Origin: an uncultured Saprospiraceae bacterium
GTDB lineage: Bacteria; Bacteroidota; Bacteroidia; Chitinophagales; Saprospiraceae
Assembly (NCBI GenBank): GCA_964385675.1
Contig: CAYLSF010000001.1
Coordinates: 53,651 to 117,650 of the forward strand
DNA length: 64,000 nucleotides
Reading direction: 5' to 3'
Shown: piece by piece, positions 35,499-63,197 of the stretch
Position numbering within the stretch: position 1 is the stretch's first letter
Layout: each line of letters starts with the position of its first letter
The notes under the pieces: generated by a model
Database searches by the model: none
What the model was told of the DNA's origin: nothing
The model's input: the letters and a program-made list of their open reading frames with translations, nothing else
Translations under genes and position numbers: made by a program

Positions 35499-35530
35499 TA
35501 TTTTTATCCTTATGTTTGTGTATAAGAAGT

Positions 35531-37535: not shown

Positions 37536-37757
37536 TTAACGTTTGATAAAAAATCTAATACTTTTAAGTATACTGTACGATACCAAGATAAGAATCGTAA
37601 CAGGGATATAAATTGGATATGCTAAAGTAGACAACAAAAGGTCTATGTCATTGGGGCTGCTTTTCACTAGTATCGGGAATAAATATCTGTTAAATAGAAT
37701 AGAAAATACTATGCCTATTAATAGGTAAACCGTTAGAAATATTATGCTATTAGCCAT
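37536..37757 (-). CDS. Small membrane protein
   Basis: 73 aa with two hydrophobic segments. Confidence 0.5.
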   Translation of the reverse strand: MANSIIFLTVYLLIGIVFSILFNRYLFPILVKSSPNDIDLLLSTLAYPIYIPVTILILVSYSILKSIRFFIKR

Positions 37758-38677
37758 TTAACCGCCTCTGTATTGTGCCATGCTTCTTCTGAGTAATATT
37801 TATTATAATAATCTTTAGCAGCCTGAGAACATAAAGCATAAAAATCAGAGTCTTGTTTTAATTCTCTAGCTATTTTTCTTGCTAAGACAAGGTTTCCTTG
37901 TTCTACTGTAGTATATGGATGTAGTTCCTTTTGAGTAGAAGAATTTTTATATCCAATACAAGGTATACCAAAATAAGCACAATTTAATTGAAAGGTGCCA
38001 GCGGCATACTCTCTCATCAAATGCACGCCATATTTAAATGCTGATAAAGTAGACATCCAATTTGACCAGTTTGCAAATGGTAAATATTGCACTTTTTTAT
38101 TAATTACTCGCTCATTATCATGTCTTCGGCCCATAGTTGGCGCCCAAACATTTTCTCCTAATTGAGACGCTATAACATACGAATCTGCTCCACCATACCA
38201 TCTAGTAAAATTTCCTCCTATAATGGGATCAGGTAATTGAAGCCTTGTCTCTTTAGGTATGGCATCTTCTATCATCAGTGACTGTAGATGTAAAACATTT
38301 TTTGTTGGCAATAGCCCTGCATAATAATTTATATCACTTTTATTATGGCATAGGAGAGCATCGGCCTGGGACAAAAGCTTTAAATATGTTTCTTGTTTAT
38401 CCGTTTCCCATTCATGCCAATAATTATTTGCTCCTTCTTGCATAAAAGCTAACTTATTACAGTTGTCTTTAATGCGAGCTACAACATCTACAATATTGTA
38501 ATTCCAGTTTTTAGGTAGAATTACTACCCCTGTAGTGTACGTATTGTCGTTAATTTTGCCAAGGTTTTGATGGTCTGCATTTAAACTGCATTGCCATGCA
38601 AATTCTGTGCGCATATTACAAAAAGTTCTAGCAACTTTTCCAAAATGCGTATTTTCCGAAAAGAAACAAATACTCAT
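37742..38677 (-). CDS. Hypothetical protein, last gene of the glycosylation operon (possible glycosyltransferase)
   Basis: 311 aa with a 4-nt overlap to the upstream gene. No clear motif. Confidence 0.45.
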   Translation of the reverse strand: MSICFFSENTHFGKVARTFCNMRTEFAWQCSLNADHQNLGKINDNTYTTGVVILPKNWNYNIVDVVARIKDNCNKLAFMQEGANNYWHEWETDKQETYLKLLSQADALLCHNKSDINYYAGLLPTKNVLHLQSLMIEDAIPKETRLQLPDPIIGGNFTRWYGGADSYVIASQLGENVWAPTMGRRHDNERVINKKVQYLPFANWSNWMSTLSAFKYGVHLMREYAAGTFQLNCAYFGIPCIGYKNSSTQKELHPYTTVEQGNLVLARKIARELKQDSDFYALCSQAAKDYYNKYYSEEAWHNTEAVKWLIA

Positions 38678-39339
38678 AATACTATATTAAATATATTTTT
38701 GCAGTGTTGTGATATATCTAAATCCATAGATTTTACTATCTTTTTATATAGATTTGGATTTTCCTGTTTTATTTCCAAAAATCTTGTATTAACATTATTA
38801 TCGATACGACCAAATGATGAGCCTTGTCCCTCTTTGCTTTTTGGTGGCGCGAATGTCCAAGGTATATGTTTTTTTAAATGCAATAAAGACTCTATTTGCT
38901 TGAGATAGTCTTTATCATATATTAACTTATTATATATAAGACATTTTTCTGGATACATTTCGTATAGTTTTATATATTCTTTCCAAACGTCAATAGCATC
39001 TCTGTTTCTTTCTTTGTTGTGTCTTTGTCTAGCGGAATCTATTCCCCTTTTTGATTTTAGTCTGGATGCAGCTATATTTGGCCAGTCTCTTAAAATAAAA
39101 AGGGTGTCTTTGTTTTGTAGTTCTTCTATTGACGGTTCGAAATCTTCGTAAGAAAATATTTCACATACAGGCTTTACTTTTGTATTTCCATATTTATGTT
39201 TGCTCCATATAAAAGTGGGGTTTGGGTATCCTATGCAATCATTATAATGGATCGTGCATTCAAAATGTTTTGCTATCCATTCTATAATAGCGTGATTTCC
39301 TGATCTTCTTAGGCCAAAAATTTTAAATGATTTCTGCAC
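38674..39339 (-). CDS. Hypothetical protein, weakly sulfotransferase-like
   Basis: N-terminal FGLRRSGNHAIIEW resembles a PAPS-binding 5'-PSB loop. This is weak evidence only. Confidence 0.3.
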   Translation of the reverse strand: MQKSFKIFGLRRSGNHAIIEWIAKHFECTIHYNDCIGYPNPTFIWSKHKYGNTKVKPVCEIFSYEDFEPSIEELQNKDTLFILRDWPNIAASRLKSKRGIDSARQRHNKERNRDAIDVWKEYIKLYEMYPEKCLIYNKLIYDKDYLKQIESLLHLKKHIPWTFAPPKSKEGQGSSFGRIDNNVNTRFLEIKQENPNLYKKIVKSMDLDISQHCKNIFNIVL

Positions 39340-40144
39340 AGGCTATACCTTCTTCGCCTCTGTATGAGTAATAAATAAACTTTTTATTATCTGTGTTTAA
39401 GATAAACGGATCTCTTATCTCTGTGTTCCCAATCCTGGCCCCCGGTCTACTAGGTTCACATCTTAATGCTACTTCAAATCCTTCAGGCTTCATAAAAATA
39501 CTACTTTTTTCGGGTGAATCTATATTGTTAAATTTTATAGATCTAATATGCTCTGGACAATCACCTATTCTTGTATAATACACTGTATCAGTTTTACTGT
39601 CATAGCATGCATGTCTCATATTTGGTAAGACATGTTTTTTTGATTTTCCAAAAAAATCACACAACATCCCCCCGATATTTTCATTCTTGTATAGAAGACA
39701 TGGTGAGCCTATTGATCTTGAGATATATCTAGCATAAAATTGAACTTGGGGAAACTCATAGTGATGTTCAAACTTACGCAAATCTTTTGTAATGTAGCAT
39801 CTGGTTTCCTGTCTACCTTTAGTCACGCCGTGTATCAGTACTGAAATGTCATTTGTTCCTACTATAACATCAGGACTAGCTACATGATCTTTTAATTCTG
39901 GTAATGTATCAACCTTTAATATTGTGTTTTGCGAAACTCGCCATCCATAATGAGGTTCATTTGAATAAGCGACCCTAATAGAGTCTCCTCTATGATGGGC
40001 AAAAAGCATAATATATCTACTGCGCCCAGGTAAAAAATTAGGTCTTTCAAAAACGCATGGACCGTTAATATTAGATGAGTCTATATTTTTTGGTATGCTA
40101 TTTGGCGTGATAACTGGCCCGTGTCTTTTAATGGTTGATGACAT
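39323..40144 (-). CDS. Hypothetical protein in glycosylation operon
   Basis: 273 aa. GPVITP..YIMLFAHH..IRVAYS is faintly reminiscent of beta-propeller glycoside hydrolases or phosphorylases. Confidence 0.4.
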   Translation of the reverse strand: MSSTIKRHGPVITPNSIPKNIDSSNINGPCVFERPNFLPGRSRYIMLFAHHRGDSIRVAYSNEPHYGWRVSQNTILKVDTLPELKDHVASPDVIVGTNDISVLIHGVTKGRQETRCYITKDLRKFEHHYEFPQVQFYARYISRSIGSPCLLYKNENIGGMLCDFFGKSKKHVLPNMRHACYDSKTDTVYYTRIGDCPEHIRSIKFNNIDSPEKSSIFMKPEGFEVALRCEPSRPGARIGNTEIRDPFILNTDNKKFIYYSYRGEEGIACAEII

Positions 40145-41087
40145 TATCTATAGTTGTAATTAATTGGAGGTAGTTGTTATATCCTCTATCTCGAATATTT
40201 TTTTCCTTGTCTATCACAGGATATATTGGCGCACCAGACAATTTTCTATAGTATGACTGTTCATCAAAATATCCTTCTCTAATCTCTTTTCCTGTAGTAG
40301 TATATATAATATTAGGCACTTGAAAATAACTACCCAGAATTCCTACCCCTCCAGCTATAGATATAAATGCAGAGCTTTTACTAAATACTCTTAGCTGTGA
40401 TTCATTATAAGAGCAGTCTGCATTATTAATAATATCTTTTAGTAAAAAGACTCCTGTAGTTTCTCTAGCCAGTTCCAAATCTGTTTGTTGTGATTTCGGA
40501 TCTCTGATGTGTAAATCATCTTTTAAAGTATCTTTTTCTCCTTCGTCGTTTGGAAAATCGGAGTTGATGGGACGATGATAAACAATATCATACCCCTTGC
40601 TTTTTAATAAGGTAAAAATATTTTTGAGAGCGCCATATCTAATAAATCCCGTTGGAGATCTTCCGTGTTCATAATTAAATCTATTTAGAATAGTTACAAA
40701 CTTGGTAGGGGCGTCAATAAACTTATCTTGATAATATTTTTTGTAGTTTGGTGGGCTCCATTTAGAATAGTCTAATACTCCATTTGCTTTAATTTGTTCA
40801 TCTTGTGAACAGTCTGAATAGTCTTTGTTAAACAATGACCAGCAATTATGATGTAACCAATTGTTTGGTAGTCTATCAAGGCCTGCTAGATTATTATTAT
40901 GCGTTCTGTGATTAAATTTTTCTTCAACATTATCCGCAAAAAAATAGAAAGGTTTCATATCATGGCATGTGATTACTTTATTTAATTGATTATTTTTATG
41001 TAGATAATGTACATATGGCGTCATTAAAACTAGTTCTATCCCAAACTCTGGATTACCGGAAATAGTCAATTTAGTTGAGGCAGACAT
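40128..41087 (-). CDS. Hypothetical protein in glycosylation operon
   Basis: 319-aa ORF with 17-nt overlaps on both sides. Confidence 0.45.
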   Translation of the reverse strand: MSASTKLTISGNPEFGIELVLMTPYVHYLHKNNQLNKVITCHDMKPFYFFADNVEEKFNHRTHNNNLAGLDRLPNNWLHHNCWSLFNKDYSDCSQDEQIKANGVLDYSKWSPPNYKKYYQDKFIDAPTKFVTILNRFNYEHGRSPTGFIRYGALKNIFTLLKSKGYDIVYHRPINSDFPNDEGEKDTLKDDLHIRDPKSQQTDLELARETTGVFLLKDIINNADCSYNESQLRVFSKSSAFISIAGGVGILGSYFQVPNIIYTTTGKEIREGYFDEQSYYRKLSGAPIYPVIDKEKNIRDRGYNNYLQLITTIDNVINH

Positions 41088-42009
41088 TTAAAATTTTATC
41101 TATTCTATTGGTGGTTTGGTGCGATGCTTTTGTTTCTAACAAAGATTTATGAGCTAGGTCTTTAGATATATCAGGATTAGACGCATAATATGCCGCTTTA
41201 GTAAGTACATCTTCTGTAGAATACCTATCATAATAAGCTATATTTTTAACGCTATTTGGCAGCTGTGGGGTTATATCGTTCATAACGCAACAGCCACATG
41301 CCATAGCTTCAAATAGTCGCATATCTCCTTCCCATGGCTCTGGATTGCAGTTAATCAAAATTTTAGTGTTTAGCAATAAACGATGATAGGGTTCACTTAA
41401 ACACTGTCTTGCTGACCTACCTCCTTGAGAAACTAAACCTATTTGTTTTTTGTATTGTTTTAAAAAATTGGATTGTTGTACAGCAAAAGCTATAGCGTTT
41501 CTTCGTGTGATTCTGGGGATAGGAGGAAATAATATAGAAATATCAATGGGTCGATTAGCCCAGTTTACTTCTTGAGCTATTTCTAAATCTGGGCGCACAC
41601 AATAGGGTAAATGATAGACTTGTCTGTTATAGGCTACGAGTTTATTTTCTACTAAGTCTGAAGTGCTTCTTTTGAAGTAAAACTTGGCGTTGTCTGGCAT
41701 TAACCTGATAGGATTATCGTCGTAGTCTATGATTGCAGATTTATCAGGATATAAAATTTGTGAAGTTTCTGCTCTAATATTTGCCCATAATTTTCTAGTA
41801 TTATAATGAGTAGACCAACACATTTTATTTCTAGTTGAAAATAAACATAAATCTGCTTCTTCTTGAGTTGGCACTTCTAGAGTTTCTTTATGTTTGTCTA
41901 TACTGTCTTGTATAATTTTGAAATCTTCACCATACAAATCAAAGTCTGGATCTATTTGTTTACATTGTTTGTAACATTCATCATTTTTATAAAGAAAAAT
42001 GCGTATCAT
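41071..42009 (-). CDS. Glycosyltransferase (GT1/CgeB-like C-terminal domain)
   Basis: RLFEAMACGCCVMND is typical of the GT-B donor-binding helix. Confidence 0.55.
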   Translation of the reverse strand: MIRIFLYKNDECYKQCKQIDPDFDLYGEDFKIIQDSIDKHKETLEVPTQEEADLCLFSTRNKMCWSTHYNTRKLWANIRAETSQILYPDKSAIIDYDDNPIRLMPDNAKFYFKRSTSDLVENKLVAYNRQVYHLPYCVRPDLEIAQEVNWANRPIDISILFPPIPRITRRNAIAFAVQQSNFLKQYKKQIGLVSQGGRSARQCLSEPYHRLLLNTKILINCNPEPWEGDMRLFEAMACGCCVMNDITPQLPNSVKNIAYYDRYSTEDVLTKAAYYASNPDISKDLAHKSLLETKASHQTTNRIDKILNVCLN

Positions 42010-42857
42010 ATAAGCTGTGCTATTTCTTCAATTGTGTATTGATCTACTTCATTACTAAAAGTTTTACCATCCATTGTTTCATGCATATTTTCTTCTGAGC
42101 TTAAATTGTTTATTATTACTGTGGGCTCAATATGCTCTTTTCTATATTTTTCAATTAATGCTTTGTTTAGATTGCCTAAGCTCATAGCTTTCATTTGTGG
42201 TACAATCGGCTTTGCATTCGTACCATTTTCAATAGCATTAAAAATTAAATCTATCGCTTCGTTAACAGGCCAAAAAAATCTAGTTGCATTAGGATTGTTC
42301 AAGATTAAAGGTTTGTTTCTCCTGATGCATTCTCTCCATTTGCAAAGAACAGATCCTGTGCTATATAAGACATTTCCATATCTTACAACTCGATACTTAG
42401 TATCTTGATTTATACTTTCATATTCTTGGAATAGTTTTTCCATTAGGTATTTACTAGATCCGTACACACCTTTAAGTTGCGCTGCCTTATCTGTAGAGAT
42501 TCCTACTACTAATTCACATTTATTTGATTTACTAGTTTCCAGTATGTTGATTGTGCCATTAATATTTGTTTGTATACATTGATAGGGATTAGACTCTGCT
42601 ATTCCTACATGCTTCATAGCCGCTAAATGAAATACTATATCTATATTTTGCATAGCCTTCTGAACGTAATAATAGTCTGCAATATCTCCTGGCAGTATAT
42701 TTATACTAGGAAATTGTTCTTTTAAGCTAACAAGATTTCCTTCATTTCTGGCTAGCACTGTTATTTTGTTATTATCGACTAATCTTTCGATTAAAGGCTT
42801 TCCTAAAAATCCTGATCCGCCAGTTATAAGTATATTTTTATTTTTAATTTGCATCAA
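42006..42857 (-). CDS. NAD(P)-dependent nucleotide-sugar 4,6-dehydratase/epimerase (CapD/PseB-like)
   Basis: Rossmann ILITGGSGFLG, the STDKA signature (ISTDKAAQ) and YGSSK (YxxxK). Confidence 0.75.
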   Translation of the reverse strand: MMQIKNKNILITGGSGFLGKPLIERLVDNNKITVLARNEGNLVSLKEQFPSINILPGDIADYYYVQKAMQNIDIVFHLAAMKHVGIAESNPYQCIQTNINGTINILETSKSNKCELVVGISTDKAAQLKGVYGSSKYLMEKLFQEYESINQDTKYRVVRYGNVLYSTGSVLCKWRECIRRNKPLILNNPNATRFFWPVNEAIDLIFNAIENGTNAKPIVPQMKAMSLGNLNKALIEKYRKEHIEPTVIINNLSSEENMHETMDGKTFSNEVDQYTIEEIAQLI

Positions 42858-43821
42858 AAACGTCTTTCCATCCTAGGGGCTTATAATTTGGATCAAATAA
42901 ATGTTGTAAATTTTTGTTTGAGTACTCGTTTGCTATTTTATACCATTGATGGCACGCTCTGAGTTTGCCTAAATCTGTTTTATCTTTGACTAACTCTTCA
43001 CCTAAAATATCTGATCTTTTATCAGGGTGTTTTCTATTATGAACTAGTAATAAATCTTTAAATAAATATTGATTTAAATTATGATGCCTACAAAGCATCA
43101 TAAATCCTGTGTCTTCTGACACAAAAAAGGCATAGTCTTTAGGCACATTAAGGCCGTTTTTGATTACGTCTGATGATATTACTAGGCCACAACCATTAAA
43201 CTGTGGAGTGTTCATCTTATAATAGGAATATTGATAATCTTTATTCCATTCTTCCATTTCGTCATACGACATTTTATACCGAAGGCTCCAGTAGTTTTTG
43301 GTATCGCCCTCTATAAATGGTTTTCCTTGGAATTTTGAGAATGTTAAAACATCCCAAGATTTGTCCCACATAACAGCGCCTCCCCAAAACGCAATAAAAT
43401 TGGGGTCTATATCATATTTTTCATGATAAAGTTTTGCAATAGATATAAATGTTTGACTGGGGACAACCATGTCTGTCTCCCCCCACATCAATACATCGGA
43501 TAGCTCAGAATATTTTTGGTTAAAATCGTACCTATAGTCTGCTACTGTATAGATATCGTCTATATTTACTCTGTAATTTACATCAAGACTGTAGTTTAAA
43601 ACGTATTGATGCATCAAACTTAGAAGTTTTGTCGATATTTCTCCTGGGCTTTTAGAACATTTTTCTAAGTCTTGATTCATATTGAAGACAAAATCAATTA
43701 TGACTTTCCCATCATAATTATTTATTGCCTTAGATAAGGATGATACATACTCTTCAAAAATGTTATGTTCGTACCACTGAACTAAACATCCAATAGCAAT
43801 CGTGGGAAATTTATTTTGCAT
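42844..43821 (-). CDS. Putative GT-A-fold glycosyltransferase
   Basis: N-terminal beta-strand TIAIGCLVQWYE and the acidic motif WGETDMVVP. Confidence 0.4.
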   Translation of the reverse strand: MQNKFPTIAIGCLVQWYEHNIFEEYVSSLSKAINNYDGKVIIDFVFNMNQDLEKCSKSPGEISTKLLSLMHQYVLNYSLDVNYRVNIDDIYTVADYRYDFNQKYSELSDVLMWGETDMVVPSQTFISIAKLYHEKYDIDPNFIAFWGGAVMWDKSWDVLTFSKFQGKPFIEGDTKNYWSLRYKMSYDEMEEWNKDYQYSYYKMNTPQFNGCGLVISSDVIKNGLNVPKDYAFFVSEDTGFMMLCRHHNLNQYLFKDLLLVHNRKHPDKRSDILGEELVKDKTDLGKLRACHQWYKIANEYSNKNLQHLFDPNYKPLGWKDVFDAN

Positions 43822-44542
43822 AATGTTGATATAATTTTTCCATCCAATATTTTGGAGAAGGTTTTACTCCACAGTTAAAATGAAATATATCTCCCATATC
43901 TGACCAAAACAAATCCTCGTCATTCAGACAGTTTCTACGTGGAAGATCCTGTATATTATAGATATATGGCAATCTATTTACTGTGATGTTTCTATGTTTT
44001 AGAAATAAATTAAAGATGGTCTGATCTTGTCCCATCCCCAGTTTATCCGTTAAGTTATAAATTTTATCTTTATTATTACGGACGAATTGTAAAAAATCTT
44101 GGAGAGTTGGACTGATAATTTTATCAACTATTATTAGACCAGTATTGAAATAGTTGTGGTAGTCTAGTGAAATACTTTTAAAAATATTGTGGGCCAAAGA
44201 GCAGTTTTCTATAGTCCTGCATACCCATTCTAAGGAGCCGAAATTTGGCACAGCTGATATAGTTTTATTTTGGCATATAACTTGTTCTAAATCTGAGTTT
44301 GGTCTTATAATAGTATCAGCATCTACTACACACAAAGTTTTATACTTTTTAAATAGAGATTCTAGATCGTATTTTAGAAATTGTGGTCTCAAATCATTAT
44401 TTTTGGTAATTCTTATATAGTCTAGCGCTGGTTTATCTTTAACATAATTCTCAAAAGACTTTGTGTGTATTTCATACCCCTGCAGCACGCTTCTTTCTGA
44501 TTCTATCTGCACACTGACTATTGCATTTTTAGCTTCTTTCAC
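43811..44542 (-). CDS. Glycosyltransferase family 8-like
   Basis: VVDADTII (DxD), FNTGLIIVD and GQDQTIFN, the GT8 motif order. Confidence 0.6.
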   Translation of the reverse strand: MKEAKNAIVSVQIESERSVLQGYEIHTKSFENYVKDKPALDYIRITKNNDLRPQFLKYDLESLFKKYKTLCVVDADTIIRPNSDLEQVICQNKTISAVPNFGSLEWVCRTIENCSLAHNIFKSISLDYHNYFNTGLIIVDKIISPTLQDFLQFVRNNKDKIYNLTDKLGMGQDQTIFNLFLKHRNITVNRLPYIYNIQDLPRRNCLNDEDLFWSDMGDIFHFNCGVKPSPKYWMEKLYQHYAK

Positions 44543-45290
44543 TATAGACGCCCCATATTTGTTTCATGATAGATTCTCTTTGATCTACCGGCATACCGGT
44601 GAAGTGCCAAATTTTTCCAGTTTTTAGAAAATACGGTTCTTGCGAACCTTGTTGAAAATTAGCTTGATTCAACCCTAAAGAAAAAATTCCAAACTGATTA
44701 TACATATGAGGCATATATAGTAATTTTATTTGATGTTTTTGCAAGATAAAATTGATCGGAGTTTGGTCTATTCCAGTATTTGGCGTGTCCCATTGGTCTA
44801 GGTCTTTTTTATTGTTGAGATAAAATTCAAAAAGTAAGTTGCATAAAGAGCTACCCGACTTTCGGTCCATTAATAATATACCAGAATTGACATAATTTTT
44901 ATACTGTAAATTGATATCTGGGAAAAACTTTTGGTATGCTTTTACAGAGTTGTTGAGCCAAGCTAAATTGTTGTGATCTTCAACGCCATAAATACCTTGA
45001 TGTGTAAACGTTTCAAAAATGTTTTCACATCGCCAAGATGGCATTGTATCAGAGTCAACGAGCAAAATTCGATCGCAATTATTGCTGACATAATTCCAAA
45101 TCTGAGATTTCATCCATTTAGGATGATTGATTTTAGGATTATTGATATTGTCTATCAGAATAAAGTCTAAATTATATTTTTTGCAATATTGTTTCCAAGA
45201 TCTTTCAGCATATAGACCCCATGTTGAATGTTGATATTTTGATTTGTCGCTATCTATACAAATCATCACAACGGCATTATTCGATTCCAT
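44529..45290 (-). CDS. Glycosyltransferase family 8-like (paralog of 43811..44542)
   Basis: LVDSDTMP, VNSGILLMD and GIDQTPIN. Confidence 0.6.
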   Translation of the reverse strand: MESNNAVVMICIDSDKSKYQHSTWGLYAERSWKQYCKKYNLDFILIDNINNPKINHPKWMKSQIWNYVSNNCDRILLVDSDTMPSWRCENIFETFTHQGIYGVEDHNNLAWLNNSVKAYQKFFPDINLQYKNYVNSGILLMDRKSGSSLCNLLFEFYLNNKKDLDQWDTPNTGIDQTPINFILQKHQIKLLYMPHMYNQFGIFSLGLNQANFQQGSQEPYFLKTGKIWHFTGMPVDQRESIMKQIWGVYSERS

Positions 45291-46128
45291 CTTCTATAAA
45301 TTTTCTGTTGTCACTTATAATATTGTTAACTTGCCAATATAATTTATCTGGCACATTTTGAAATGCGCCTAACCAGAGATTGTTTTTGTGCATTTTCTCA
45401 TAAGATTCTTCATCTCTAATGTGTTGCCCGTATTTTCCTATATTTTGAACTACAGATACCGCTGGAAACAGGGTCTTTTTACCTTTTGAAAAGTATTTGT
45501 GGAATGGCCATACGAAAGACCCAGGGCCTTTATCGATTCTGTTAATCTCGTTTAGCCAATCTTCTCCCTTGCAAGCATAAGTACGACCTTTTGGAGTAAT
45601 ATAATCTACTCCAAACATACCTATTTTATTAATCTCTTTATATGTTTCTTTAGTCATACCAAAGCCGCCAGTTCCATCAAACCATTCTTTGGCAACTAAA
45701 CCTGTAGTATTGTTGTATGTTTCATAATGACCTGGGTGACATGGCCTATGAAATGTACATGCTGCAAATAGATTATTGTCGTTAAGTCTAGGTAATACTT
45801 GTTGAAAGTAATCAAGAGTATATTTAGATGGCAATGTATCATCTTCTAGATGAATAGCATAGTCATACCCCTTGCTAAAAGTATAGTCTAAGCAGAATTT
45901 AGTGTTAACAAAGCACCCGTGTGTATGGCTATGTCCTAATATATCATAAAATTTAAGCCCGCTGAGTTTTGCTGCTTCTAAATTTTGTTGTTGTATAATA
46001 GTTTCGGCGCCGTCGCACACCAATACTATATCATAGTTGTCTACATTATTACACTTTTTAAGGGCCTTTAATACCTTTAGCAAATAGATAGGCCTTTTAT
46101 ATGCTTTTATAGTGATCAAAGCTTTCAT
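45277..46128 (-). CDS. Putative GT-A-fold glycosyltransferase (EDD motif)
   Basis: ALITIKAYKRP..L..L.. N-terminal strand and IHLEDDTLPS. Confidence 0.45.
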   Translation of the reverse strand: MKALITIKAYKRPIYLLKVLKALKKCNNVDNYDIVLVCDGAETIIQQQNLEAAKLSGLKFYDILGHSHTHGCFVNTKFCLDYTFSKGYDYAIHLEDDTLPSKYTLDYFQQVLPRLNDNNLFAACTFHRPCHPGHYETYNNTTGLVAKEWFDGTGGFGMTKETYKEINKIGMFGVDYITPKGRTYACKGEDWLNEINRIDKGPGSFVWPFHKYFSKGKKTLFPAVSVVQNIGKYGQHIRDEESYEKMHKNNLWLGAFQNVPDKLYWQVNNIISDNRKFIEDGIE

Positions 46129-46781
46129 TTGGTAGCCTCTATTTCTTTTTCTAAGGCGTCTATAGCATCTTGCTGCCGAGAGTCAAAATATCCCTTGGCT
46201 CTAAAATTTCCGGTCCAGTTTTCTTTTAGATGTAGTATTTGATATTTATCGGGGTTTAATATCCCGGCTCTAAATCCATTTGGAACTTCATGACACCCAG
46301 GAGACGCATTCAAATATGGCGAAGTATTTACAAATCTAGTATCATCATTAAGAAAACACATATGATAGTTATCTGGATGTACAAAATGTCTATTAAATAG
46401 ATTGTATCTTAGAACACCGGCATATGAACCCTCTGGATTTACTACATCATATTCCCAGTCAAATGTTTTTAGATGGTCAGCCGTATGAGGCATTAAGAGT
46501 TCATCAGCATCAATAAACATTCTACATTTTGTCTCACACCTATCTAAAATTTGGTTTTTAGCCCCGGCAAAATCATTGTTAAGATTCAAATTAAAGCTAA
46601 AAAACTGAGATTTTTGTATTAAACTAAGTAACTTTGTATATAGATTGTGTGCTTTTGGGCCATCTTCATCTATTCCAACGCAGATTCTAGATGCTATACC
46701 ATCATGGTTTTCACACCAGCCTTTGATAAATTTTTCGTCCGAAGGACTTAGAAGCAAGCATATTGTAAGGTCTTTATTCAT
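46125..46781 (-). CDS. Putative GT2-like glycosyltransferase
   Basis: LTICLLLSP N-terminal strand and FIDADELL (DxD). Confidence 0.45.
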   Translation of the reverse strand: MNKDLTICLLLSPSDEKFIKGWCENHDGIASRICVGIDEDGPKAHNLYTKLLSLIQKSQFFSFNLNLNNDFAGAKNQILDRCETKCRMFIDADELLMPHTADHLKTFDWEYDVVNPEGSYAGVLRYNLFNRHFVHPDNYHMCFLNDDTRFVNTSPYLNASPGCHEVPNGFRAGILNPDKYQILHLKENWTGNFRAKGYFDSRQQDAIDALEKEIEATK

Positions 46782-47176
46782 AAAAACATTTTGGTTAGAA
46801 TTATATCTTTAATAGCTGCTTGAGCGCTTATAATTATACTTTGACGTTGAACATTAGAAACATAAAGCATGCTCGATACTCTACAGTATTTAAGATATTT
46901 TCTATTTTTATGTATTCGGAAATCTCTTATTAGAGTATACAGTGTAGAGTTTGTCTTAAAGCATTTTTCTATTAGTTTGTTATATAATAAAACAATATCT
47001 AAGTCGCATTTCAAAAAAATAGCTATTTGATGCTTTGAGAAAGCTAATGGAGGTACGCTTTCTATAGTTTCGTAAACTGTGTTTGATATTGTTTTAGTTT
47101 TTATAAGGCCGTGCGGTGGACATCCTACGTAATGATATCCACCATTAGACCAAAAAATCTTGCCAGATTGATTCAT
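46778..47176 (-). CDS. Hypothetical protein in glycosylation operon
   Basis: I prefer the ATG at 47176 (ATGA overlap with the upstream stop) to the track start at 47203. Confidence 0.45.
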   Translation of the reverse strand: MNQSGKIFWSNGGYHYVGCPPHGLIKTKTISNTVYETIESVPPLAFSKHQIAIFLKCDLDIVLLYNKLIEKCFKTNSTLYTLIRDFRIHKNRKYLKYCRVSSMLYVSNVQRQSIIISAQAAIKDIILTKMFL

Positions 47177-47706
47177 AGTTTTTGTTGATCCAAAAATTTC
47201 CATCTGTTCAATCTCGGCTCTATTCCCATATTAACATTAATAATGTATCTTTCAACTTCATCCCAAGAGCCAAAAAACATTTCGTGTTTTAGCATTCCCC
47301 ATAGAAAATTAGGAACGCCTTCTTTGCCTTGTTCACAGCAAATAATAACAGGCTTTCTTTGCATAGCTGCATGTGCTATTTCAATAATAGAACCGCACAT
47401 AAAAATATCGTGGTTGATATATGCAACTACAAAGCTAGATAAGTCCACAGCTCTTAGGTCTCTTTGTACAACTTCTTTACCTATTCTTGTAGCCTTATCC
47501 CAGTCTGCCGCTTCTTTTGCAATATTAATTTTAGAAACAGCTACACTATCGTCTTCATTAGAAAAAGCAGAATCTGTTGGATCTATTACAGATATGCCTT
47601 CATTTCTTAAGAAAGGGGCTAGATTTTTTCTCCAAGTCTTTCCATCATCTTTGGCCTGATCAATAGGCCCAGCTAAGTAACAAATATGATTTGATAAAAG
47701 TCCCAA
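47173..47706 (-). CDS. Nucleoside 2-deoxyribosyltransferase-like protein
   Basis: ICYLAGPID..W N-terminus and GSIIEIAHAAMQRKPVI resemble the NDT/Rcl-family pattern. Confidence 0.5.
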   Translation of the reverse strand: MGLLSNHICYLAGPIDQAKDDGKTWRKNLAPFLRNEGISVIDPTDSAFSNEDDSVAVSKINIAKEAADWDKATRIGKEVVQRDLRAVDLSSFVVAYINHDIFMCGSIIEIAHAAMQRKPVIICCEQGKEGVPNFLWGMLKHEMFFGSWDEVERYIINVNMGIEPRLNRWKFLDQQKL

Positions 47707-48261: not shown

Positions 48262-48465
48262 TTACAGTGTATTTTCTTCTTCTTTATAGTTATCAATAGC
48301 ATTTACTAATGCATCTTCAAAAGATTTCCCAATCATTTGCCTCGGAGTACGAAGTACAAAAGTGTTTTTATCGCTCGGATTTTTAGGACTTATAATCAAG
48401 GCGTATTTCTTTAGTACCTTGATAAGGTCTTCTGTCAAGTCGACATTAAAATCTTGGGTCTCCAT
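48262..48465 (-). CDS. Hypothetical protein
   Basis: 67-aa ORF overlapping the pnkp stop by 20 nt. Confidence 0.45.
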   Translation of the reverse strand: METQDFNVDLTEDLIKVLKKYALIISPKNPSDKNTFVLRTPRQMIGKSFEDALVNAIDNYKEEENTL

Positions 48466-50899
48466 TAGTCCCTCTTTGTTTGACCTGTAAAAATTTGCCT
48501 AGATTTTCGACAGATGGATCTTCTAAGATATCTTTAGCTAGTTTAAATTGAGCAATAGAATCTGACAATTTATATCTAATCTTTTTTCTTGACATTAGCT
48601 TGTCGAGTTTAGCCGGATTAGTATAATCAGGACCATATACTATTCTTAAATATTCTGGATTTCGTACTTTTATGTAGGGCGCTATATCTAAATTATAAAC
48701 CTTATCAGGCTTGACCACGCACCCTTCTATTTTATTAGATTTTAAAAAGGCCTGGAAATCTGATAATAGCTCTTCAGAAATATTATTTAAGTCTAATAAT
48801 ATTGACTTAGATTTATTAATTTTACTAAACATGTCGCTATTTGACTCATTCCAATAGGTCTTGGTAGACCCATCAGTATAAACATCTTTGAGTATAGCGA
48901 ACGGCTCTATTCTAGCCGGCTCATCCGATCCATAAATATCTACCTGTTTTTTGAAAAGTTCTAGATAGGCATTTTGTGATTCTACACTTATATAGTTCTT
49001 GTGTATATTTTTAATACCTTTGGACAAGCTATATTTGTGATGTCCATATTTTTCAATATATTCTGTTTTTGTTAGGTTGTCAAAATCTTTATTTGTAGAA
49101 ATAGATTCTTCAAGCTTATTGAGTACTTTATCTAGATTTCCTTCGGCTCTTAATCTTGAATGTTCTGAGGCTGCATGATAGTATCCGTAAAAAGACTTAT
49201 CTATTAGCCCTTCTCCGAGCAATCTCCATGGAAGGGCCTCGCAATCTAAAATCGTAAATAAGCCACCCTGACTAAAGAAGTCTTGTCTTTCTTCAATTAG
49301 TCTGGCATATTCTTCTTTTAATATTTCATTAAGCTCTTCTTTAAATCTATATCCATTTTTTGTTACTCCATAACACTTCTCGGGATCTGAATATAGATAA
49401 ATTTGCGCTCGCGAGCCCATAAACTTTGGCTGTAAGCACACTTGTTCTATTCCATTCTTCCTATAATAATTAAAGGCCCAATCTAGACTTTCTAGTTCTG
49501 TGTCGGTTTTATCAGCGGGACACATAGTAGGAGATAAATAGCAAATATTTTGCTTTGCCATTCTTGAGGCTAGCTTAAGATTATCTTCGTCTATTTGAAT
49601 ATCTCTAGTAAAAGATAAGGTCTGAAGCCTATCGTCACAATATGCGTTCTTTGAATTAACTTTCAGGAAGTGATGCCGGCCTTTATCAAAATATACTGCG
49701 GTTAGACAGTTACCATATACCGCGCCAGTGTCTATACCTATATTTGAACTGTTAACAAAAGCTCTTTGCAACGCTATATGACCCCAAATATGTTTCTTAT
49801 GAGATTTATTTTTTTCTCTATCAACAAACCACAACTTGTCTTCTAAAGTTTCTTTTTCTTCTAAACGATATCTATAATTTCTTTGATTTCTTAGAGCTTC
49901 TCCAGAGTTCTTTTTTAGAAACTTTGTTTGGCAAGGACTGTGAGTAATAATAGCTTCTTTTGTTTCAACCCAATGGTAAGACAGTTTTAATAGATCTAAA
50001 AATTTTTTTTGTAGCTCTGGGCTCTCAGCTAAAAATACAGCGTCATTAAAATATTTATTGAGAATGTCTTGAGGGACTTGAGTATCTTTTTTAGTCCAAA
50101 AAACTTCTGCAAAATGATCGTGATTACCTCGTACTAGTCTAATTAAGTCTAGATTTTCTTTAATAAGATTGATTGTTTTTTCAGCTGAGTCTTTTTCTTT
50201 GTTCTTATCAAAGATGTCTCCTATTAAAATAATATCTTGAAATTTCTTTGCTCTAAGCTGATTAAGCATTTCTTCTAATTCTCTATAGCAGCCATGTATA
50301 TCTCCAACTACTGCATATTTTGAATTATTGTCTAGCCTTAAACCATTCTTAGGTTCTTCTTCTCTTATTATCTCATGAGAGATTTCGGCATGAGACTTAA
50401 TATTATATACTTGTGCAAAATTTTTGTAAGAGTTTATACTCTTAAGGGTCGTTTCCTTAAATTTTCTAACATGATTCTTAATAATAAAATTATTTCTATC
50501 GCTATAGTAATCTTTTGTGTTCTTGTAATTAAAGGTAACAAAGCACAAATTGTAATGATGCTTTTTAGCTAATGTGGTTATTTTTTCATGGAAGGAAGGA
50601 CTGAGAGCAGTGCTGTCTACAACAACTATGTCTTGATTAGCTGGGTAACTGATAACTGATTCTAGTTCAGTCCAGAGCATATTAAAAGCTTGATCTGATA
50701 CTGCAAAAAGTTCTGAATCATGCTTGTCTAAATCCGATCCTATTATCATCCGCCTCAGATTATCGGAGGATATATAGTGAACTGTTTCAAATAGTCCCGA
50801 CGCAATCGGTAAGAAATTATTCTCGCACCAATAGCTTTTTCCACAATTACTTGGGCCAACTGTAACTACAATAGTATTCTTTTTAATTTTTAATGACAT
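48446..50899 (-). CDS. pnkp: Polynucleotide kinase-phosphatase-ligase (bacterial Pnkp-type RNA repair enzyme)
   Basis: Three modules in Pnkp order. The P-loop kinase has GPSNCGKS. The metallophosphatase has VVGDIHGC, GDIFDK and RGNHD. The adenylyltransferase/ligase has LQPKFMGSRAQIY, similar to the KxMGSR lysine motif. 817 aa. Confidence 0.8.
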   Translation of the reverse strand: MSLKIKKNTIVVTVGPSNCGKSYWCENNFLPIASGLFETVHYISSDNLRRMIIGSDLDKHDSELFAVSDQAFNMLWTELESVISYPANQDIVVVDSTALSPSFHEKITTLAKKHHYNLCFVTFNYKNTKDYYSDRNNFIIKNHVRKFKETTLKSINSYKNFAQVYNIKSHAEISHEIIREEEPKNGLRLDNNSKYAVVGDIHGCYRELEEMLNQLRAKKFQDIILIGDIFDKNKEKDSAEKTINLIKENLDLIRLVRGNHDHFAEVFWTKKDTQVPQDILNKYFNDAVFLAESPELQKKFLDLLKLSYHWVETKEAIITHSPCQTKFLKKNSGEALRNQRNYRYRLEEKETLEDKLWFVDREKNKSHKKHIWGHIALQRAFVNSSNIGIDTGAVYGNCLTAVYFDKGRHHFLKVNSKNAYCDDRLQTLSFTRDIQIDEDNLKLASRMAKQNICYLSPTMCPADKTDTELESLDWAFNYYRKNGIEQVCLQPKFMGSRAQIYLYSDPEKCYGVTKNGYRFKEELNEILKEEYARLIEERQDFFSQGGLFTILDCEALPWRLLGEGLIDKSFYGYYHAASEHSRLRAEGNLDKVLNKLEESISTNKDFDNLTKTEYIEKYGHHKYSLSKGIKNIHKNYISVESQNAYLELFKKQVDIYGSDEPARIEPFAILKDVYTDGSTKTYWNESNSDMFSKINKSKSILLDLNNISEELLSDFQAFLKSNKIEGCVVKPDKVYNLDIAPYIKVRNPEYLRIVYGPDYTNPAKLDKLMSRKKIRYKLSDSIAQFKLAKDILEDPSVENLGKFLQVKQRGTNGDPRF

Positions 50900-50944: not shown

Positions 50945-51211
50945 TTATTGTTGCAAAAATTGTAGTTTTTCTATAATAGAATTTTTCAACCCCAACTCAT
51001 TAAATAGCGGTATATATCTAGTAATGATGCTTTCTGTATTAAAACCTGCCTGTTCTCTACCGGATAGAATACCGCAAATTTCATAGCGTACAGCTTTAAG
51101 AGTGTTATAGATTAATATTGCATATGCCACATGTTTAGTCTCTAAAAAATATTTAGATATTGTTAATACAAACGCCCCATGTTGTAGGTATGTTATTAAC
51201 TGTATCGCCAA
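50945..51211 (-). CDS. Hypothetical protein (doubtful start)
   Basis: 88-aa ORF between hen1 and pnkp with a 59-nt overlap onto the hen1 3' end. Confidence 0.3.
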   Translation of the reverse strand: MAIQLITYLQHGAFVLTISKYFLETKHVAYAILIYNTLKAVRYEICGILSGREQAGFNTESIITRYIPLFNELGLKNSIIEKLQFLQQ

Positions 51212-52379
51212 TACCTGTTATTGATATTTCTTTATTTTGGCCAAAAATATTTATTATCTGATTAGATAGTTGCTTTAGCGTAAATTCAAACTTATGATCT
51301 TCGTGTCTTAGCTCTATTCCATAGAATGGATTAAATTCTTTGTTTGGCGTAGTAATCAATATTTGGGAGGGTTTTAAACTAAGTAGCCCCTTAAAAATCT
51401 CGGCATGCTTGTCGAGTTCTATATGTTCAATTACTTCAGACATAATGATCGTACAGCCATTTACTGTCTGTTTATCTATTTCGTCAATTGAACTTACTAC
51501 ACTTGCGTTATCTATGCCGTTGTTTTCGATTTTTTTAGAACATTTAATTTGGCAGTCTGGATCTATATCAACACAAATATAATTTTTATGATTCTTTGCT
51601 AGGCGTGTAAGGTATCTGCCCTCGCCAGAGCCAAAATCTATGATAGTGCTATCTTCTGGAATTAAGGAGTTAATGTAGTCGAATCTTGATTCCCAATTAT
51701 TTTTGGGCGACATGTTTAGTTCATATTTCTCACTATTATTGATAAGCTCTTGATATTCGTAGAACTTTTTTTCGCTGTTTCTTAATAGGTTTTGTTTGAA
51801 TAGATACCTGATGAAATATGGCGCGTCAATATCAGATATTAATTGGAAGTATTTTTTGTTTATATTGTCGTCTTTGTATATAGCATCTTGATCTAACGCC
51901 ATATAGAAAGCTACTACCTGAACAAACTTTAAGAAATATTCCAGAGTATGTTTATACGAGCGAATTTTAATACATCTGTAATTAGTCCAATTTTCTGAAG
52001 GGTAATCTTGAATAATAAATTCATGGAAATATTTTTTAATACTTTGGAATGTAGAGTCTCGAACATTAACGTTACTAATTTCCAGTGAGATATCACTAAT
52101 ATCATCATATTTTGTATTTAGACCATCCAACATACCGTCTATCATTTTGTTTATAATAAATGGGTTGTTAAATTTGTTAACGTCTAAATACTCAAAATCT
52201 GAGCCTCCAAATGAACTTTCATCATGACCTTCCATAAATGAAATGTAATATGTTTGTGGGTCTGTAAACCAACCAATCAAATTACCTTTCCTACAGTCTA
52301 TAATACGTGGTCCGCTATCGGGGTTCTTGTTTATAATATAGGAAAAATCTAAATTGTCATTTTTGAGTTTGATGATCAT
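51153..52379 (-). CDS. hen1: Hen1-type RNA 3'-terminal 2'-O-methyltransferase
   Basis: SAM motif IIDFGSGEGRY, then MSEVIEHIE and LRHEDHKFEFT (Hen1 metal/RNA-binding motifs). The N-terminal domain of about 230 aa sits where the Pnkp-ligase-activating domain is expected. Confidence 0.8.
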   Translation of the reverse strand: MIIKLKNDNLDFSYIINKNPDSGPRIIDCRKGNLIGWFTDPQTYYISFMEGHDESSFGGSDFEYLDVNKFNNPFIINKMIDGMLDGLNTKYDDISDISLEISNVNVRDSTFQSIKKYFHEFIIQDYPSENWTNYRCIKIRSYKHTLEYFLKFVQVVAFYMALDQDAIYKDDNINKKYFQLISDIDAPYFIRYLFKQNLLRNSEKKFYEYQELINNSEKYELNMSPKNNWESRFDYINSLIPEDSTIIDFGSGEGRYLTRLAKNHKNYICVDIDPDCQIKCSKKIENNGIDNASVVSSIDEIDKQTVNGCTIIMSEVIEHIELDKHAEIFKGLLSLKPSQILITTPNKEFNPFYGIELRHEDHKFEFTLKQLSNQIINIFGQNKEISITGIGDTVNNIPTTWGVCINNI

Positions 52380-60903: not shown

Positions 60904-61749
60904 TTATAGTATTTTATAAGTGATTATAGAATCTGGATAGCTATCTGCACTCCTATAGGAGTCTGTAGTAATAATCTTGTCAAAGGTATTCAGTGGCTCT
61001 GCATAACCCTTACTAAAAATTCCGTGGGTTACAAAGACCCTTACTTCACTTGCTTTTTTCTCTCTTAAGAGATTAGCTATGGCTATGTGGCTACCAAATC
61101 CGTCCCCAATGTCATCAATAATAACGCAAGACTTATTATCTAAGTTATCGCTATGAACTTTAAAGTTAGATAGCTTGCCTGTTTTTGTATCTCTTTGTTT
61201 AGAACAATAAACAATTTCGGGGTGGGGAGTATTTGCAAAGCTTACAATGCTACTTATACGCTTTACTGCTCCCGCGTCTGGACAAACTACTACATCTATA
61301 TCATCGTCAATAACATTATCGGCAATCATATGATCTATGTTTTTAACTTTACATCTATCAATCAATGCAGTAACAACATCACTATGAGGCTCTATAATTT
61401 GAACCCAGCCATAATTTTGTTGGTTTATAATCTTAGCATAAACTTTGGCGCCTAGAGCTTCTCCTTCTTGAGTTACTCTGTCTTGTCTTGCCCCTGGAAA
61501 ATAACCTGTAATTAGATTAATCTTAATAAGCGGGAAAGCCTGTCTAATAGCATCGGTTGCCATAACCAGATACATTAGATCGTCGCTATCATTAAGTCTA
61601 CATGTGATATTACAGTGAGTCCAGTCTTTTTTGCTTAAGGGCCTATCATTTAATCTAACATGAACCTCTCCCGCGGGAAATTTAATTTGAGTTAATCCGC
61701 ACTCTAAGGTTTCATTTTGATCAATGTCGATAAATTGAAGTTTAAACAT
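60904..61749 (-). CDS. Ribose-phosphate pyrophosphokinase (Prs)-fold enzyme; candidate ADPR-pyrophosphate synthetase (Adps-like)
   Basis: FPAGEVHV, YFPGARQDR, PDAGAVKR, THGIFS and TTDS all follow the Prs layout. The phosphoribosyl loop is IIDDIGDGFGS rather than DDxxDTxGT. 281 aa. The gene starts 3 nt after the Nampt-like stop. Confidence 0.7.
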   Translation of the reverse strand: MFKLQFIDIDQNETLECGLTQIKFPAGEVHVRLNDRPLSKKDWTHCNITCRLNDSDDLMYLVMATDAIRQAFPLIKINLITGYFPGARQDRVTQEGEALGAKVYAKIINQQNYGWVQIIEPHSDVVTALIDRCKVKNIDHMIADNVIDDDIDVVVCPDAGAVKRISSIVSFANTPHPEIVYCSKQRDTKTGKLSNFKVHSDNLDNKSCVIIDDIGDGFGSHIAIANLLREKKASEVRVFVTHGIFSKGYAEPLNTFDKIITTDSYRSADSYPDSIITYKIL

Positions 61750-61751
61750 TT

Positions 61752-63197
61752 TTAGTTTCTCATATTGTTACGAATTTGATCAAGAGTAATTTTATTAACA
61801 ATAACACCATTCTTAAATACTGTTTTAAGCTCGCCTTGCTGCTCTTCCTCTTGGGATACTTGATCTTTTAGGGTGAGCTGGCCATTTACTCTTTCTACCT
61901 TTAACAGGCCTTTTGCTGATTTTTTAGTGCCGTCATCAGTTATAGGGTCCTTATAAACATTATAACCACAGTTTTCATGTTCTACATAAGTACATTTAAC
62001 TGCCCATCCAAATTCATCACGAGTCTTACAATGGTTCCAACTGCCTAATCCTAAAAATACATTAGGATAAAATCCTTTATCAATAAGTCCGTTAAGGATT
62101 CTGTCACATCGATCTAAAGAAATAGCCTCACCATAAACTGCTCCTACTTTAGGATTCAGTCTCTTAAAACCATTTTCATCAATCTCGCCTCCAAAGGTAT
62201 CCCATAACAGCTCTATCGTACCTTTATATTCTGGGCTATTTGGATCTGCATCAGGATCTCCTACTATAATTTTTACAGGGTCTCCACTGTCTCCCCTAAT
62301 AGCACAAGATACTAAGCCATTTTCGTCAGGCGTTCTATTTAAAATTTCATTTTTTAGCTTTGGCATGTACTCTGTAAGAACTCGCCAGTAATCATAAGTA
62401 TCACTGACCAAAGCAAGCAATCCACTTGGAAATGCTTCTGTAACAAGATATTTATAATAGTCAAACTCTGATCCTAAAATCTTAGTACCTGTACTCATAC
62501 AGGCATGTTCACTAGCAAATATCTTGTTTGTAGGGAATGATGCATTATAGTATTTATCAATAGCATAAAATGCGGGCACAGTATCAGATGCATCAAAATT
62601 AACAAAGTGTGCCATTCCAGCAACCATAGATGACTCTGAAGAATTGAGCCCTCTGCAACTAAAATCGTGAAATTGTATGTTTATAAATCCATTGTCACCG
62701 CCTACTCTATCCCATGCTTTTTCTGCAACTTTCCTATATTGATTTAGCGTTGTAGCAGAAGTACTTGGCAACCAAAGTACACAAGACATTAAAGTTTCTA
62801 TATAATTTGTAAGCCAATAAAAATCTTCGTGTGTATTGGTGATTGTTAAAACTGGCACTCTCAATGGGACTTTAGTTCCTTCCGGCAGAGCCTTAATTTC
62901 TATCGGAAGAAAACCAAGTTCATGAAGCTGCCTAATCTTATCTGTGTCAAAAGCAGTATACTTTTCAAATTCTTCTACAACTTCTTCTATATCCCTATCA
63001 AAAAACCCCTTTTGCATTCTTGTAGTAAGATATTCTTGCAAAAAATATTGCAATCCAAAGAATACAATTTCTTTAATTTCTGCGTCTCTTGATGCTCGCG
63101 GAGTCAAATTGCTATAAATCTTTGTAGTCCCAGGAACTAAAAAGTAATCGTGAAAAGTTTTGTAGCTATCAACAGTAAGCAAAGGGTTTTCAATCAT
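61752..63197 (-). CDS. Nicotinamide phosphoribosyltransferase (Nampt/NadV)-family enzyme; candidate Namat-like
   Basis: 481 aa. N-terminal NPLLTVDSYK, IRGDSGDP and GLGSW motifs are typical of the Nampt family. Confidence 0.8.
   Translation of the reverse strand: MIENPLLTVDSYKTFHDYFLVPGTTKIYSNLTPRASRDAEIKEIVFFGLQYFLQEYLTTRMQKGFFDRDIEEVVEEFEKYTAFDTDKIRQLHELGFLPIEIKALPEGTKVPLRVPVLTITNTHEDFYWLTNYIETLMSCVLWLPSTSATTLNQYRKVAEKAWDRVGGDNGFINIQFHDFSCRGLNSSESSMVAGMAHFVNFDASDTVPAFYAIDKYYNASFPTNKIFASEHACMSTGTKILGSEFDYYKYLVTEAFPSGLLALVSDTYDYWRVLTEYMPKLKNEILNRTPDENGLVSCAIRGDSGDPVKIIVGDPDADPNSPEYKGTIELLWDTFGGEIDENGFKRLNPKVGAVYGEAISLDRCDRILNGLIDKGFYPNVFLGLGSWNHCKTRDEFGWAVKCTYVEHENCGYNVYKDPITDDGTKKSAKGLLKVERVNGQLTLKDQVSQEEEQQGELKTVFKNGVIVNKITLDQIRNNMRN

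Follow-up and report, generated by a model that had tools for sequence, protein, structure and literature searches.

The window analysed here (the whole 64,000-nucleotide stretch taken from contig CAYLSF010000001.1) carries on its minus strand two adjacent genes, one for a 481-aa protein of the Nampt fold and one for a 281-aa protein of the Prs fold. An earlier note, written from the sequence letters, had proposed that they form a NARP1-type NAD+ reconstitution module, made of a candidate nicotinamide ADP-ribose transferase (Namat) and a candidate ADP-ribose (ADPR) pyrophosphokinase (Adps). Both open reading frames were confirmed with the lengths and positions proposed (Table 1), and the four motifs quoted for the Prs-fold protein, FPAGEVHV, YFPGARQDR, PDAGAVKR and IIDDIGDGFGS, are all present in its translation. 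The tight coupling that had been claimed is also borne out, the junction reading AAC-TAA-AA-ATG-TTT, with 2 nt separating the Namat-like stop from the Adps-like start and the start codon lying 3 nt past the last base of the stop. A promoter and terminator scan returned sites no more frequent than chance and no terminator-like site between the two genes. Since the gap is 2 nt and no terminator-like site interrupts it, the pair is probably co-transcribed and translationally coupled.

In Pfam the 481-aa protein matched PF18127 NAMPT_N and PF04095 NAPRTase, and the 281-aa protein PF13793 Pribosyltran_N, PF00156 Pribosyltran and PF14572 Pribosyl_synth; in PHROGs they fell in phrog_448 (E=7e-153) and phrog_619 (E=1e-71), respectively. 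An identical 481-aa protein is present on 13 contigs and, because the exact protein recurs on all of them, its sequence is not an assembly artefact. A metagenomic scaffold of 142 kb is the longest of them, and the window represents its positions 29572-93571. The phage scaffold is at least 142 kb long, with 34% G+C, and a near-identity DNA search of the GenBank phage records gave no match to the window phage. From the taxonomy of its cellular relatives and the 34% G+C, we infer a probable host within the Bacteroidota.

Among all PDB sequences, the best match of the 481-aa protein was to the SpβL1 Namat crystal structures 9w5x/9w5w (382 bits), with 200 bits for the human and 176 bits for the Xanthomonas Nampt. 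As a reciprocal control we took a Schizotequatrovirus Nampt; KVP40, with a Nampt that prefers phosphoribosyl pyrophosphate (PRPP), belongs to this genus. The control ranked the same proteins in the opposite order (Xanthomonas 402, human 360-372 and SpβL1 Namat 241 bits). The 481-aa protein also passes the NCBIfam NF006629 equivalog cut-off (456 vs 405), but this model was rejected as a discriminator since it accepts the verified Namats and the KVP40-type Nampt alike. The best match in the phage records was an ICP1-like homolog, with 44-45% identity, and identity was 33-34% to the Bas63 protein and 24-29% to the KVP40-type and T4-like Nampts. A neighbour-joining tree (24 taxa, 470 columns, 200 bootstraps) split the human, Xanthomonas, KVP40-type and T4-like Nampts from all Namat-type proteins, that of the window included, with a 100% bootstrap value. 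Together with P0002 and P0003, both metagenomic, the window protein forms a subclade that also has 100% support, and the deeper nodes within the Namat clade are poorly supported. By this placement the 481-aa protein is, as judged from its sequence, a member of the Namat clade and not of the Nampt clade. The ICP1-like Namat was represented in the tree by JSF1 (intact, 488 aa), since ICP1 isolates carry an in-frame stop. In isolate 2018_Mat_167 this stop lies at about codon 29 ('...THV*SNF...') and the gene is annotated from a downstream GTG, and the annotation in isolate 2017_Dha_S is similarly shortened; the stop may mean that NARP1 is truncated or has become a pseudogene in some lineages of ICP1.

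The folds of Namat and Nampt overlay with a deviation of about 1 Å, and it is at the dimer interface, together with the ligand, that the selectivity clamp takes shape. The Namat enzymes have been described as a conserved catalytic core with a selectivity clamp, the latter made of a loop (SCL; Arg40), which contributes an Arg, Lys or Tyr that stacks on the adenine, and a helix (SCH) having the 11-residue motif GS-X-phi-X-phi-X-phi-TRD, in which the aromatic residues 3 and 7 do likewise (PMC12774641). By the criteria of that study, 18 of the 21 published ligand and catalytic residues are identical in the window protein, the catalytic His included, and the catalytic-core residues D10, Y12, F179, R182, D205, H231, R301 and D303 are among those conserved. 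The three that differ are, in SpβL1 numbering, F392 (Trp), D361 (Glu) and Y396 (Cys). Six positions separate Namat from Nampt (R40, S190, A/S362, S391, an aromatic at 392 and Y396, again in SpβL1 numbering), and five of them are Namat-like in the window protein (R37, S180, A358, S386 and the aromatic W387). The loop matches that of SpβL1 Namat (Table 1), and canonical Nampts have at this site either a shorter loop (Xanthomonas and KVP40-type) or a longer and different one (human).

The helix is where the window protein departs from the strict motif. It is 10 residues long (GSWNH-CKTRD), with a 1-aa gap against the 11-residue motif, and it keeps GS and TRD; the position 3 aromatic, F392 in SpβL1, is W387, and the position 7 Tyr, Y396 in SpβL1, is C390. 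Trp, His and Lys line the pocket entrance in place of Phe/Tyr...Tyr. This deletion was seen in no other homolog of about 280 (119 database relatives, 80 IMG/VR loci and 80 bacterial loci), and within the subclade the Y396 equivalent is C in the window protein and L in both P0002 and P0003. In SpβL1, single clamp mutations lower activity by about 1.3-1.7-fold and double mutations by up to about 17-fold (PMC12774641). The window protein is therefore a divergent member of the clade, for which a strict specificity for ADPR pyrophosphate (ADPR-PP) is not assured; most likely its clamp works but is possibly less selective. The deletion offers a ready natural test of the selectivity-clamp model, namely of whether ADPR-PP is preferred when the second stacking Tyr is missing.

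The 281-aa protein was aligned with the verified Adps of ICP1 and Bas63, with Adps-like proteins and with E. coli Prs. In ICP1 Adps, the C-terminal alpha11-alpha12 regulatory/filament module is lost and the regulatory elements are remodelled, the PP loop binds the ATP donor, the catalytic hairpin holds Lys185, and the acceptor site comprises R87, H121, D161, D212 and D213 (PMC13586617). The window protein stops before the C-terminal helices of Prs (281 aa vs 315 for E. coli Prs), has no N-terminal Prs insert, and its regulatory loop is one residue shorter; its hairpin is 2 residues longer than that of Prs and reads K-Q-R-D-T-K-T-G (pattern K-x-R-D-x-x-T-G). The catalytic and acceptor residues K184, R88, H122, D158, D212 and D213 are all kept, and as they are common to Prs they would indicate an active enzyme rather than its specificity. 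On the broad subfamily model TIGR01251 the window protein scored 122.5 bits and passed the cut-off of 113, with 98 bits for ICP1 Adps, 138.5 for Bas63 Adps, 100 for the protein of Vibrio phage Pontus, 101 for the Lacibacter neighbour, and 423 for E. coli Prs (533 on NF002320). However, it fails every housekeeping and archaeal-type Prs equivalog cut-off, its best equivalog score being 108 bits vs 296 and its NF002320 score 97.5 bits against a cut-off of 297, and the verified Adps fail the housekeeping cut-offs likewise. With phmmer it scored 86-149 bits to Adps proteins (ICP1 and Bas63 102-112, Kremar 149) and 66 bits to E. coli Prs, the one true Prs of the comparison, to which it is 24% identical. 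A PDB search returned Prs matches only, from a set that contained no Adps structure. Judged by alignment and scores, the 281-aa protein has the architecture of Adps and is nearer to the verified Adps than to housekeeping Prs.

The PP loop had been read in the earlier note as a divergent substrate loop, and this divergence is confirmed. In the window it reads DDIGDGFGSH, against an Adps consensus of DDICDGG(G/R/A)TF and DDMIDTGGTL in Prs, so that the 'DG' of Adps stands where Prs has 'DT'. By itself, however, this change is not strong evidence, since the loop is as long as that of Prs and the window version is off the Adps consensus too. Relative to the ICP1 donor site, C215-D-G-A-A-S220 with the F221/F223 lid (PMC13586617), D216, G217 and S220 are kept, C215 is replaced by G and F221 by H, and a Phe stands at the consensus Gly218; among 116 relatives, Cys was found at 215 in 101 and Phe at 221 in 109. 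A near-identical loop, DDIGDGFGTH, occurs in the Adps P0128, encoded on a 5-kb contig (Logan SRR28113949) where a Namat of 515 aa, which has a fully canonical clamp and shares 56% identity with that of SpβL1, is followed by a 78-aa ORF and then by this Adps. The rare variant thus forms a small lineage of its own, separate from the clamp deletion, and is compatible with a pair of the NARP1 type. This locus rules out that the clamp and PP-loop variants co-vary, and there is no sign that both enzymes changed together, because the rare loop is found elsewhere with a canonical Namat.

The pairing itself is common among relatives. An alignment-based scan of IMG/VR (a single-protein scan gave none) provided the 80 nearest viral Namat-like loci, and in 69 of them an Adps-like gene lies on the same strand at most 4 kb away, in the order Adps to Namat in 59 and in that of the window, Namat to Adps, in 10. 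Osterman et al. defined NARP1 as an Adps-clade gene with a Namat nearby, which is true for 97% of Adps-clade genes, and reported it in about 4.3% of sequenced phages (859 pathways in 20,185 genomes; bioRxiv 10.1101/2024.02.11.579819). Under that operational definition the window pair, with genes of the Adps and Namat types 2 nt apart on one strand, is a NARP1 pair. No Pfam match to nicotinamide mononucleotide (NMN) adenylyltransferase (NMNAT, PF01467) or Nudix (PF00293) was found among the minus-strand ORFs of at least 90 aa in the window, in agreement with the earlier note, and none is among the precomputed Pfam matches in the approximately 9-10 kb on either side, where an NMNAT gene had been named as a finding that would count against the proposal. 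Together these screens cover 82 kb of the 142-kb scaffold. An AAA_28 protein to the left of the window was considered as a NadR-like kinase and rejected, as it proved to be a generic P-loop protein that lacks an NMNAT domain and has neither a NadR nor a PDB match.

A third gene may bear on the pathway. The macro-domain gene claimed by the earlier note does not reach the cut-off of the Pfam Macro model (PF01661, 18 bits vs 22, E=0.003), yet it matches phrog_335 'phosphatase' with E=1e-37, and its tblastn match is a 'macrodomain protein, Poa1p-like family' of phages, so that the claim is confirmed in part. The same PHROG holds gp172 of Pontus (E=1.5e-50), which lies between Adps and Namat, and with phmmer the window protein scored 81 bits to the macro protein of Pseudomonas phage Kremar, whose gene sits two genes after Namat, and 58 bits to Pontus gp172. 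Pontus belongs to the same genus (Thalassavirus) as Vibrio phage Gary, in which an Adps-phosphatase-Namat operon dephosphorylates ADPR-1''-phosphate and overcomes the aRES defence (bioRxiv 10.64898/2026.01.28.702374). An Adpp-type macro gene is also present at 11 loci of the viral survey. In the window, however, the candidate lies about 26 kb from the pair, whereas NARP1-AP is recognised by a phosphatase within two genes; it is possibly an accessory outside the operon and, as in NARP1-AP, may extend the pathway to ADPR-1''-phosphate. That the macro gene is of this specific Adpp type strengthens the NARP1 reading.

With the family and clade membership of both proteins, the conserved residues, the gene pairing and the lack of an NMNAT in 82 kb, we consider it likely that this uncultivated phage has in the pair a NAD+ reconstitution module of the NARP1 type, its enzymatic activities and counter-defence role being predicted from homology to the tested systems. 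The Namat clade at 100% bootstrap, the reversal of bit scores in the control and the Adps architecture support the preference of the earlier note for such a module over plain NMN salvage. Branching of both proteins within housekeeping clades had been counted there as evidence to the contrary, but the profile and phylogeny comparison places the one in the Namat clade (100%) and gives the other scores like those of verified Adps, and their nearest bacterial relatives are themselves of the Adps and Namat types. In the proposed pathway, host NADases of the SIR2, TIR (Thoeris), DSR or SEFIR type would cleave NAD+ to ADPR and nicotinamide, the Adps-like enzyme would convert ADPR and ATP to ADPR-PP, and the Namat-like enzyme would join ADPR-PP and nicotinamide into NAD+ and pyrophosphate, so that neither an NMN intermediate nor an NMNAT would be needed.

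Several observations weigh against this interpretation. The clamp helix lacks one residue and has Cys for the second adenine-stacking Tyr, the PP loop is without the consensus Cys215 and Phe221, and no Adps-like gene was found on the 3.5- and 7.2-kb contigs of P0002 and P0003, the closest relatives, which also lack this Tyr (a further homolog, P0004, does have a weak Adps-like ORF upstream). The operon structure is read from the spacing of the genes, the promoter and terminator scan being at chance level, and about 60 kb of the scaffold lies beyond the NMNAT screen. Also, the characterised Namat enzymes still make NMN from PRPP in vitro (PMC12774641), which leaves room for some NMN production here.

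The same chemistry could serve metabolic upkeep rather than counter-defence, the pair recycling ADPR from NAD-consuming enzymes during infection, akin to the NrtR-controlled operons of Bacteroidota. Beyond the three-sequence subclade, the closest relatives of the 481-aa protein are indeed Bacteroidota chromosomal genes, with 44-50% identity, all of which carry the full Namat clamp motif. We surveyed 80 such loci and within 5 kb found an Adps-like short Prs paralog in 57 and an NrtR-like regulator in 53, together with Metallophos (43), Tpt1/KptA (38), Macro (19) and DUF4291 (16) genes; loci of this kind in Lacibacter sediminis and Aquimarina were looked at in addition. Operons of the nrtR-prs-nadV type that are derepressed by ADPR were described in 2008, the role of the extra prs paralog being left open (PMC2330246), and a bacterial NARP1 has been shown in Paenibacillus foliorum (PMC12774641). 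By gene content the Bacteroidota loci look like a chromosomal, ADPR-regulated and NARP1-like recycling operon, and these pairs may explain the 'second prs' of the nrtR-prs-nadV operons as an ADPR pyrophosphokinase; this side observation may matter more than the phage pair itself. For the window pair, though, we hold an upkeep role to be unlikely. In the phages tested so far the pair has been shown to help against defences that deplete NAD+, and ADPR-PP appeared only with an active defence; the window carries an Adpp-type phosphatase, whose known role is in countering aRES; and a recent transfer from bacteria is not resolved by the tree, given its low internal support.

A second alternative keeps the NARP1 pair but with a clamp so weakened or broadened that PRPP and ADPR-PP are used similarly, giving both NMN and NAD+, and the subclade may in that case be drifting back towards Nampt. 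The loss of the Y396 equivalent throughout the fully supported subclade (C, L and L), the deletion unique to the window among the homologs compared and the missing Adps-like neighbours of P0002 and P0003 all speak for it. However, the window protein retains W at the 392 equivalent, Arg37, T392, R393, D394, Ser180 and Ser386, the single clamp substitutions in SpβL1 had small effects, and the Namat-like gene is tightly followed by an intact Adps-like one; the contigs of P0002 and P0003 are, besides, short. We therefore find this alternative decidedly unlikely.

Classical salvage (NARP2-like, or Prs with NadV) is very unlikely; in it, PRPP would come from ribose-5-phosphate through the Prs-like enzyme and be turned into NMN, with nicotinamide, by the Nampt-like one, and an NMNAT of the host, or an unseen one of the phage, would complete NAD+. 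Its case draws on the Pfam and NCBIfam names (Prs and NAPRTase/NadV), the NF006629 score, the lost clamp Tyr, the use of PRPP by Namats in vitro and the part of the scaffold outside the NMNAT screen. The NF006629 model does not discriminate, however, and the 481-aa protein lies outside the Nampt clade with Nampt bit scores half those to Namat, just as the Prs-like protein fails the Prs equivalog cut-offs. SpβL1 Adps, moreover, gave no product in a Prs-type assay yet converts ADPR and ATP, and 94% of the phages with a KVP40-type Nampt encode an Nmnat, with no phage having both pathways (bioRxiv 10.1101/2024.02.11.579819), whereas none was found in the 82 kb. Least probable of all is that the shortened clamp helix alters the accepted donor, for example to 2'-phospho ADPR-PP, which would give NADP+ plus NAD+, or to other ADP-ribose derivatives; if true, this would make the pair a naturally occurring NARP1 of altered specificity.

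The other genes of the window are listed with the pair in Table 1. The SLOG gene of the earlier note was recovered as a YAcAr-type protein. A link of it to NAD would follow only from a published prediction for viral YpsA-like SLOG domains (PMC9503650), and a role of this protein in the processing of ADPR-derived signals is unproven. The macro, SLOG and Metallophos genes of the window were also considered as orthologs of the Bacteroidota cluster genes and rejected, the only weak match being to the Metallophos domain of the Pnkp protein. This protein forms, with Hen1, a bacterial-type RNA-repair pair on the phage scaffold. The inteins or LAGLIDADG homing-endonuclease insertions are borne by the genes for PhoH, a class II (B12-dependent) ribonucleotide reductase and an unassigned 729-aa ORF, and a weak Hint-domain match was seen next to the window, in the region of DNA polymerase III alpha. 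A polysaccharide or sugar-modification cluster as large as the one found here is unusual for a phage.

Table 1. Features of the pair and of the other genes discussed (window positions)
Feature	Position	Strand	Size	Basis or remark
Namat-like gene (nicotinamide ADP-ribose transferase candidate)	61752..63197	-	481 aa	ATG; first of pair
Selectivity-clamp loop SCL, PRASR37DAEI	63075..63101	-		adenine-stacking Arg kept; length same as SpβL1 Namat
Selectivity-clamp helix SCH, G385-S-W-N-H-C-K-T-R-D394	62016..62045	-		aligned to SpβL1 GSFTYQYNTRD
Adps-like gene (ADP-ribose pyrophosphokinase candidate)	60904..61749	-	281 aa	ATG; second of pair
PP loop of Adps-like protein, D212-D-I-G-D-G-F-G-S-H221	61087..61116	-		translation and alignment
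Candidate Adpp (Poa1p-like macro-domain ADPR-1''-phosphate phosphatase)	34269..34772	-	167 aa	phrog_335 and phmmer
YAcAr-type SLOG protein	29064..29411	-	115 aa	PF10686, E=2.4e-14; phrog_289 'GTP-binding domain'
Calcineurin-like phosphoesterase (Metallophos) gene	29408..30127	-		start overlapped by end of SLOG gene
IMPDH/GMP-reductase-family gene	30461..31438	-		two genes on from SLOG
AAA_28 P-loop protein	about 2 kb left of window, same scaffold		186 aa	among pieces of DNA polymerase III alpha gene
Pnkp/Hen1 RNA-repair pair	48446..50899 and 51153..52379	-	Pnkp 817 aa; Hen1 408 aa	Pnkp: AAA_33 kinase, Metallophos, PNKP_ligase; Hen1: Hen1_N and methyltransferase domain
Intein/LAGLIDADG-bearing genes	9411..11078, 14142..17492, 20446..22635	-
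Glycosyltransferase-containing gene run	about 37742..46781	-	about 10 genes	includes Polysacc_synt_2/NAD-dependent epimerase-dehydratase gene
Nucleoside 2-deoxyribosyltransferase-like domain protein	47173..47706	-	177 aa	PF15891, E=1.3e-9
tRNA-Gly	35529..35601	-		anticodon tcc
SocA/Panacea antitoxin-like protein (marginal match)	35954..36445	-	163 aa	25.0 bits vs cut-off 25.7

The NARP1-type pair of the window has among its closest known systems the NARP1 of Bas63, SpβL1 and ICP1 (bioRxiv 10.1101/2024.02.11.579819; PMC12774641; PMC13586617), with which it shares a Prs-fold and a Nampt-fold gene on one strand, the Namat clade, the catalytic core, the SCL Arg, the Adps architecture, the 'DG' of the PP loop and the lack of an NMNAT. 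It differs in its gene order, a minority one among the paired viral relatives, in the clamp helix with Cys for the second stacking Tyr, and in Gly, Phe and His for Cys215, Gly218 and Phe221 in the PP loop, and its identity to the verified enzymes is only 30-45%. With NARP1-AP (Gary, Adps-Adpp-Namat) the window has in common a Poa1p-like macro homolog of the same PHROG as Pontus gp172, although the gene is remote from the pair and of low similarity to the Thalassavirus protein. NARP2 (KVP40 Nampt with a bifunctional Nmnat) likewise has a nicotinamide-using Nampt-fold enzyme and a role in restoring NAD+, but the window protein is 27-29% identical to the KVP40-type and T4-like Nampts and in another clade, and it has a Prs-fold partner instead of an Nmnat.

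The bacterial prs-nadV operons (PMC2330246) and bacterial NARP1 also pair Adps-like genes with Namat-motif genes, often next to NrtR, Tpt1, Macro or Metallophos genes, whereas the pair of the window belongs to a phage, has no NrtR, runs in a gene order opposite to that of most, and carries the clamp deletion. Housekeeping Prs and Nampt share the folds and the residues K184, H122, D158 and D212-D213 (Prs fold) and His231, D205 and R301 (Nampt fold), but the window Prs-like protein is without the allosteric/filament module and the Nampt-fold protein has Namat-type residues at the pocket entrance. The window and its 80 IMG/VR relatives extend the reach of NARP1 well past the cultured phages of enterobacteria, Bacillus and Vibrio for which it was defined, implying that NAD+-depleting defences matter in those, probably Bacteroidota, hosts. 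As such the window pair is a further example of a published system, and the shortened clamp helix is its one feature worth an experiment.

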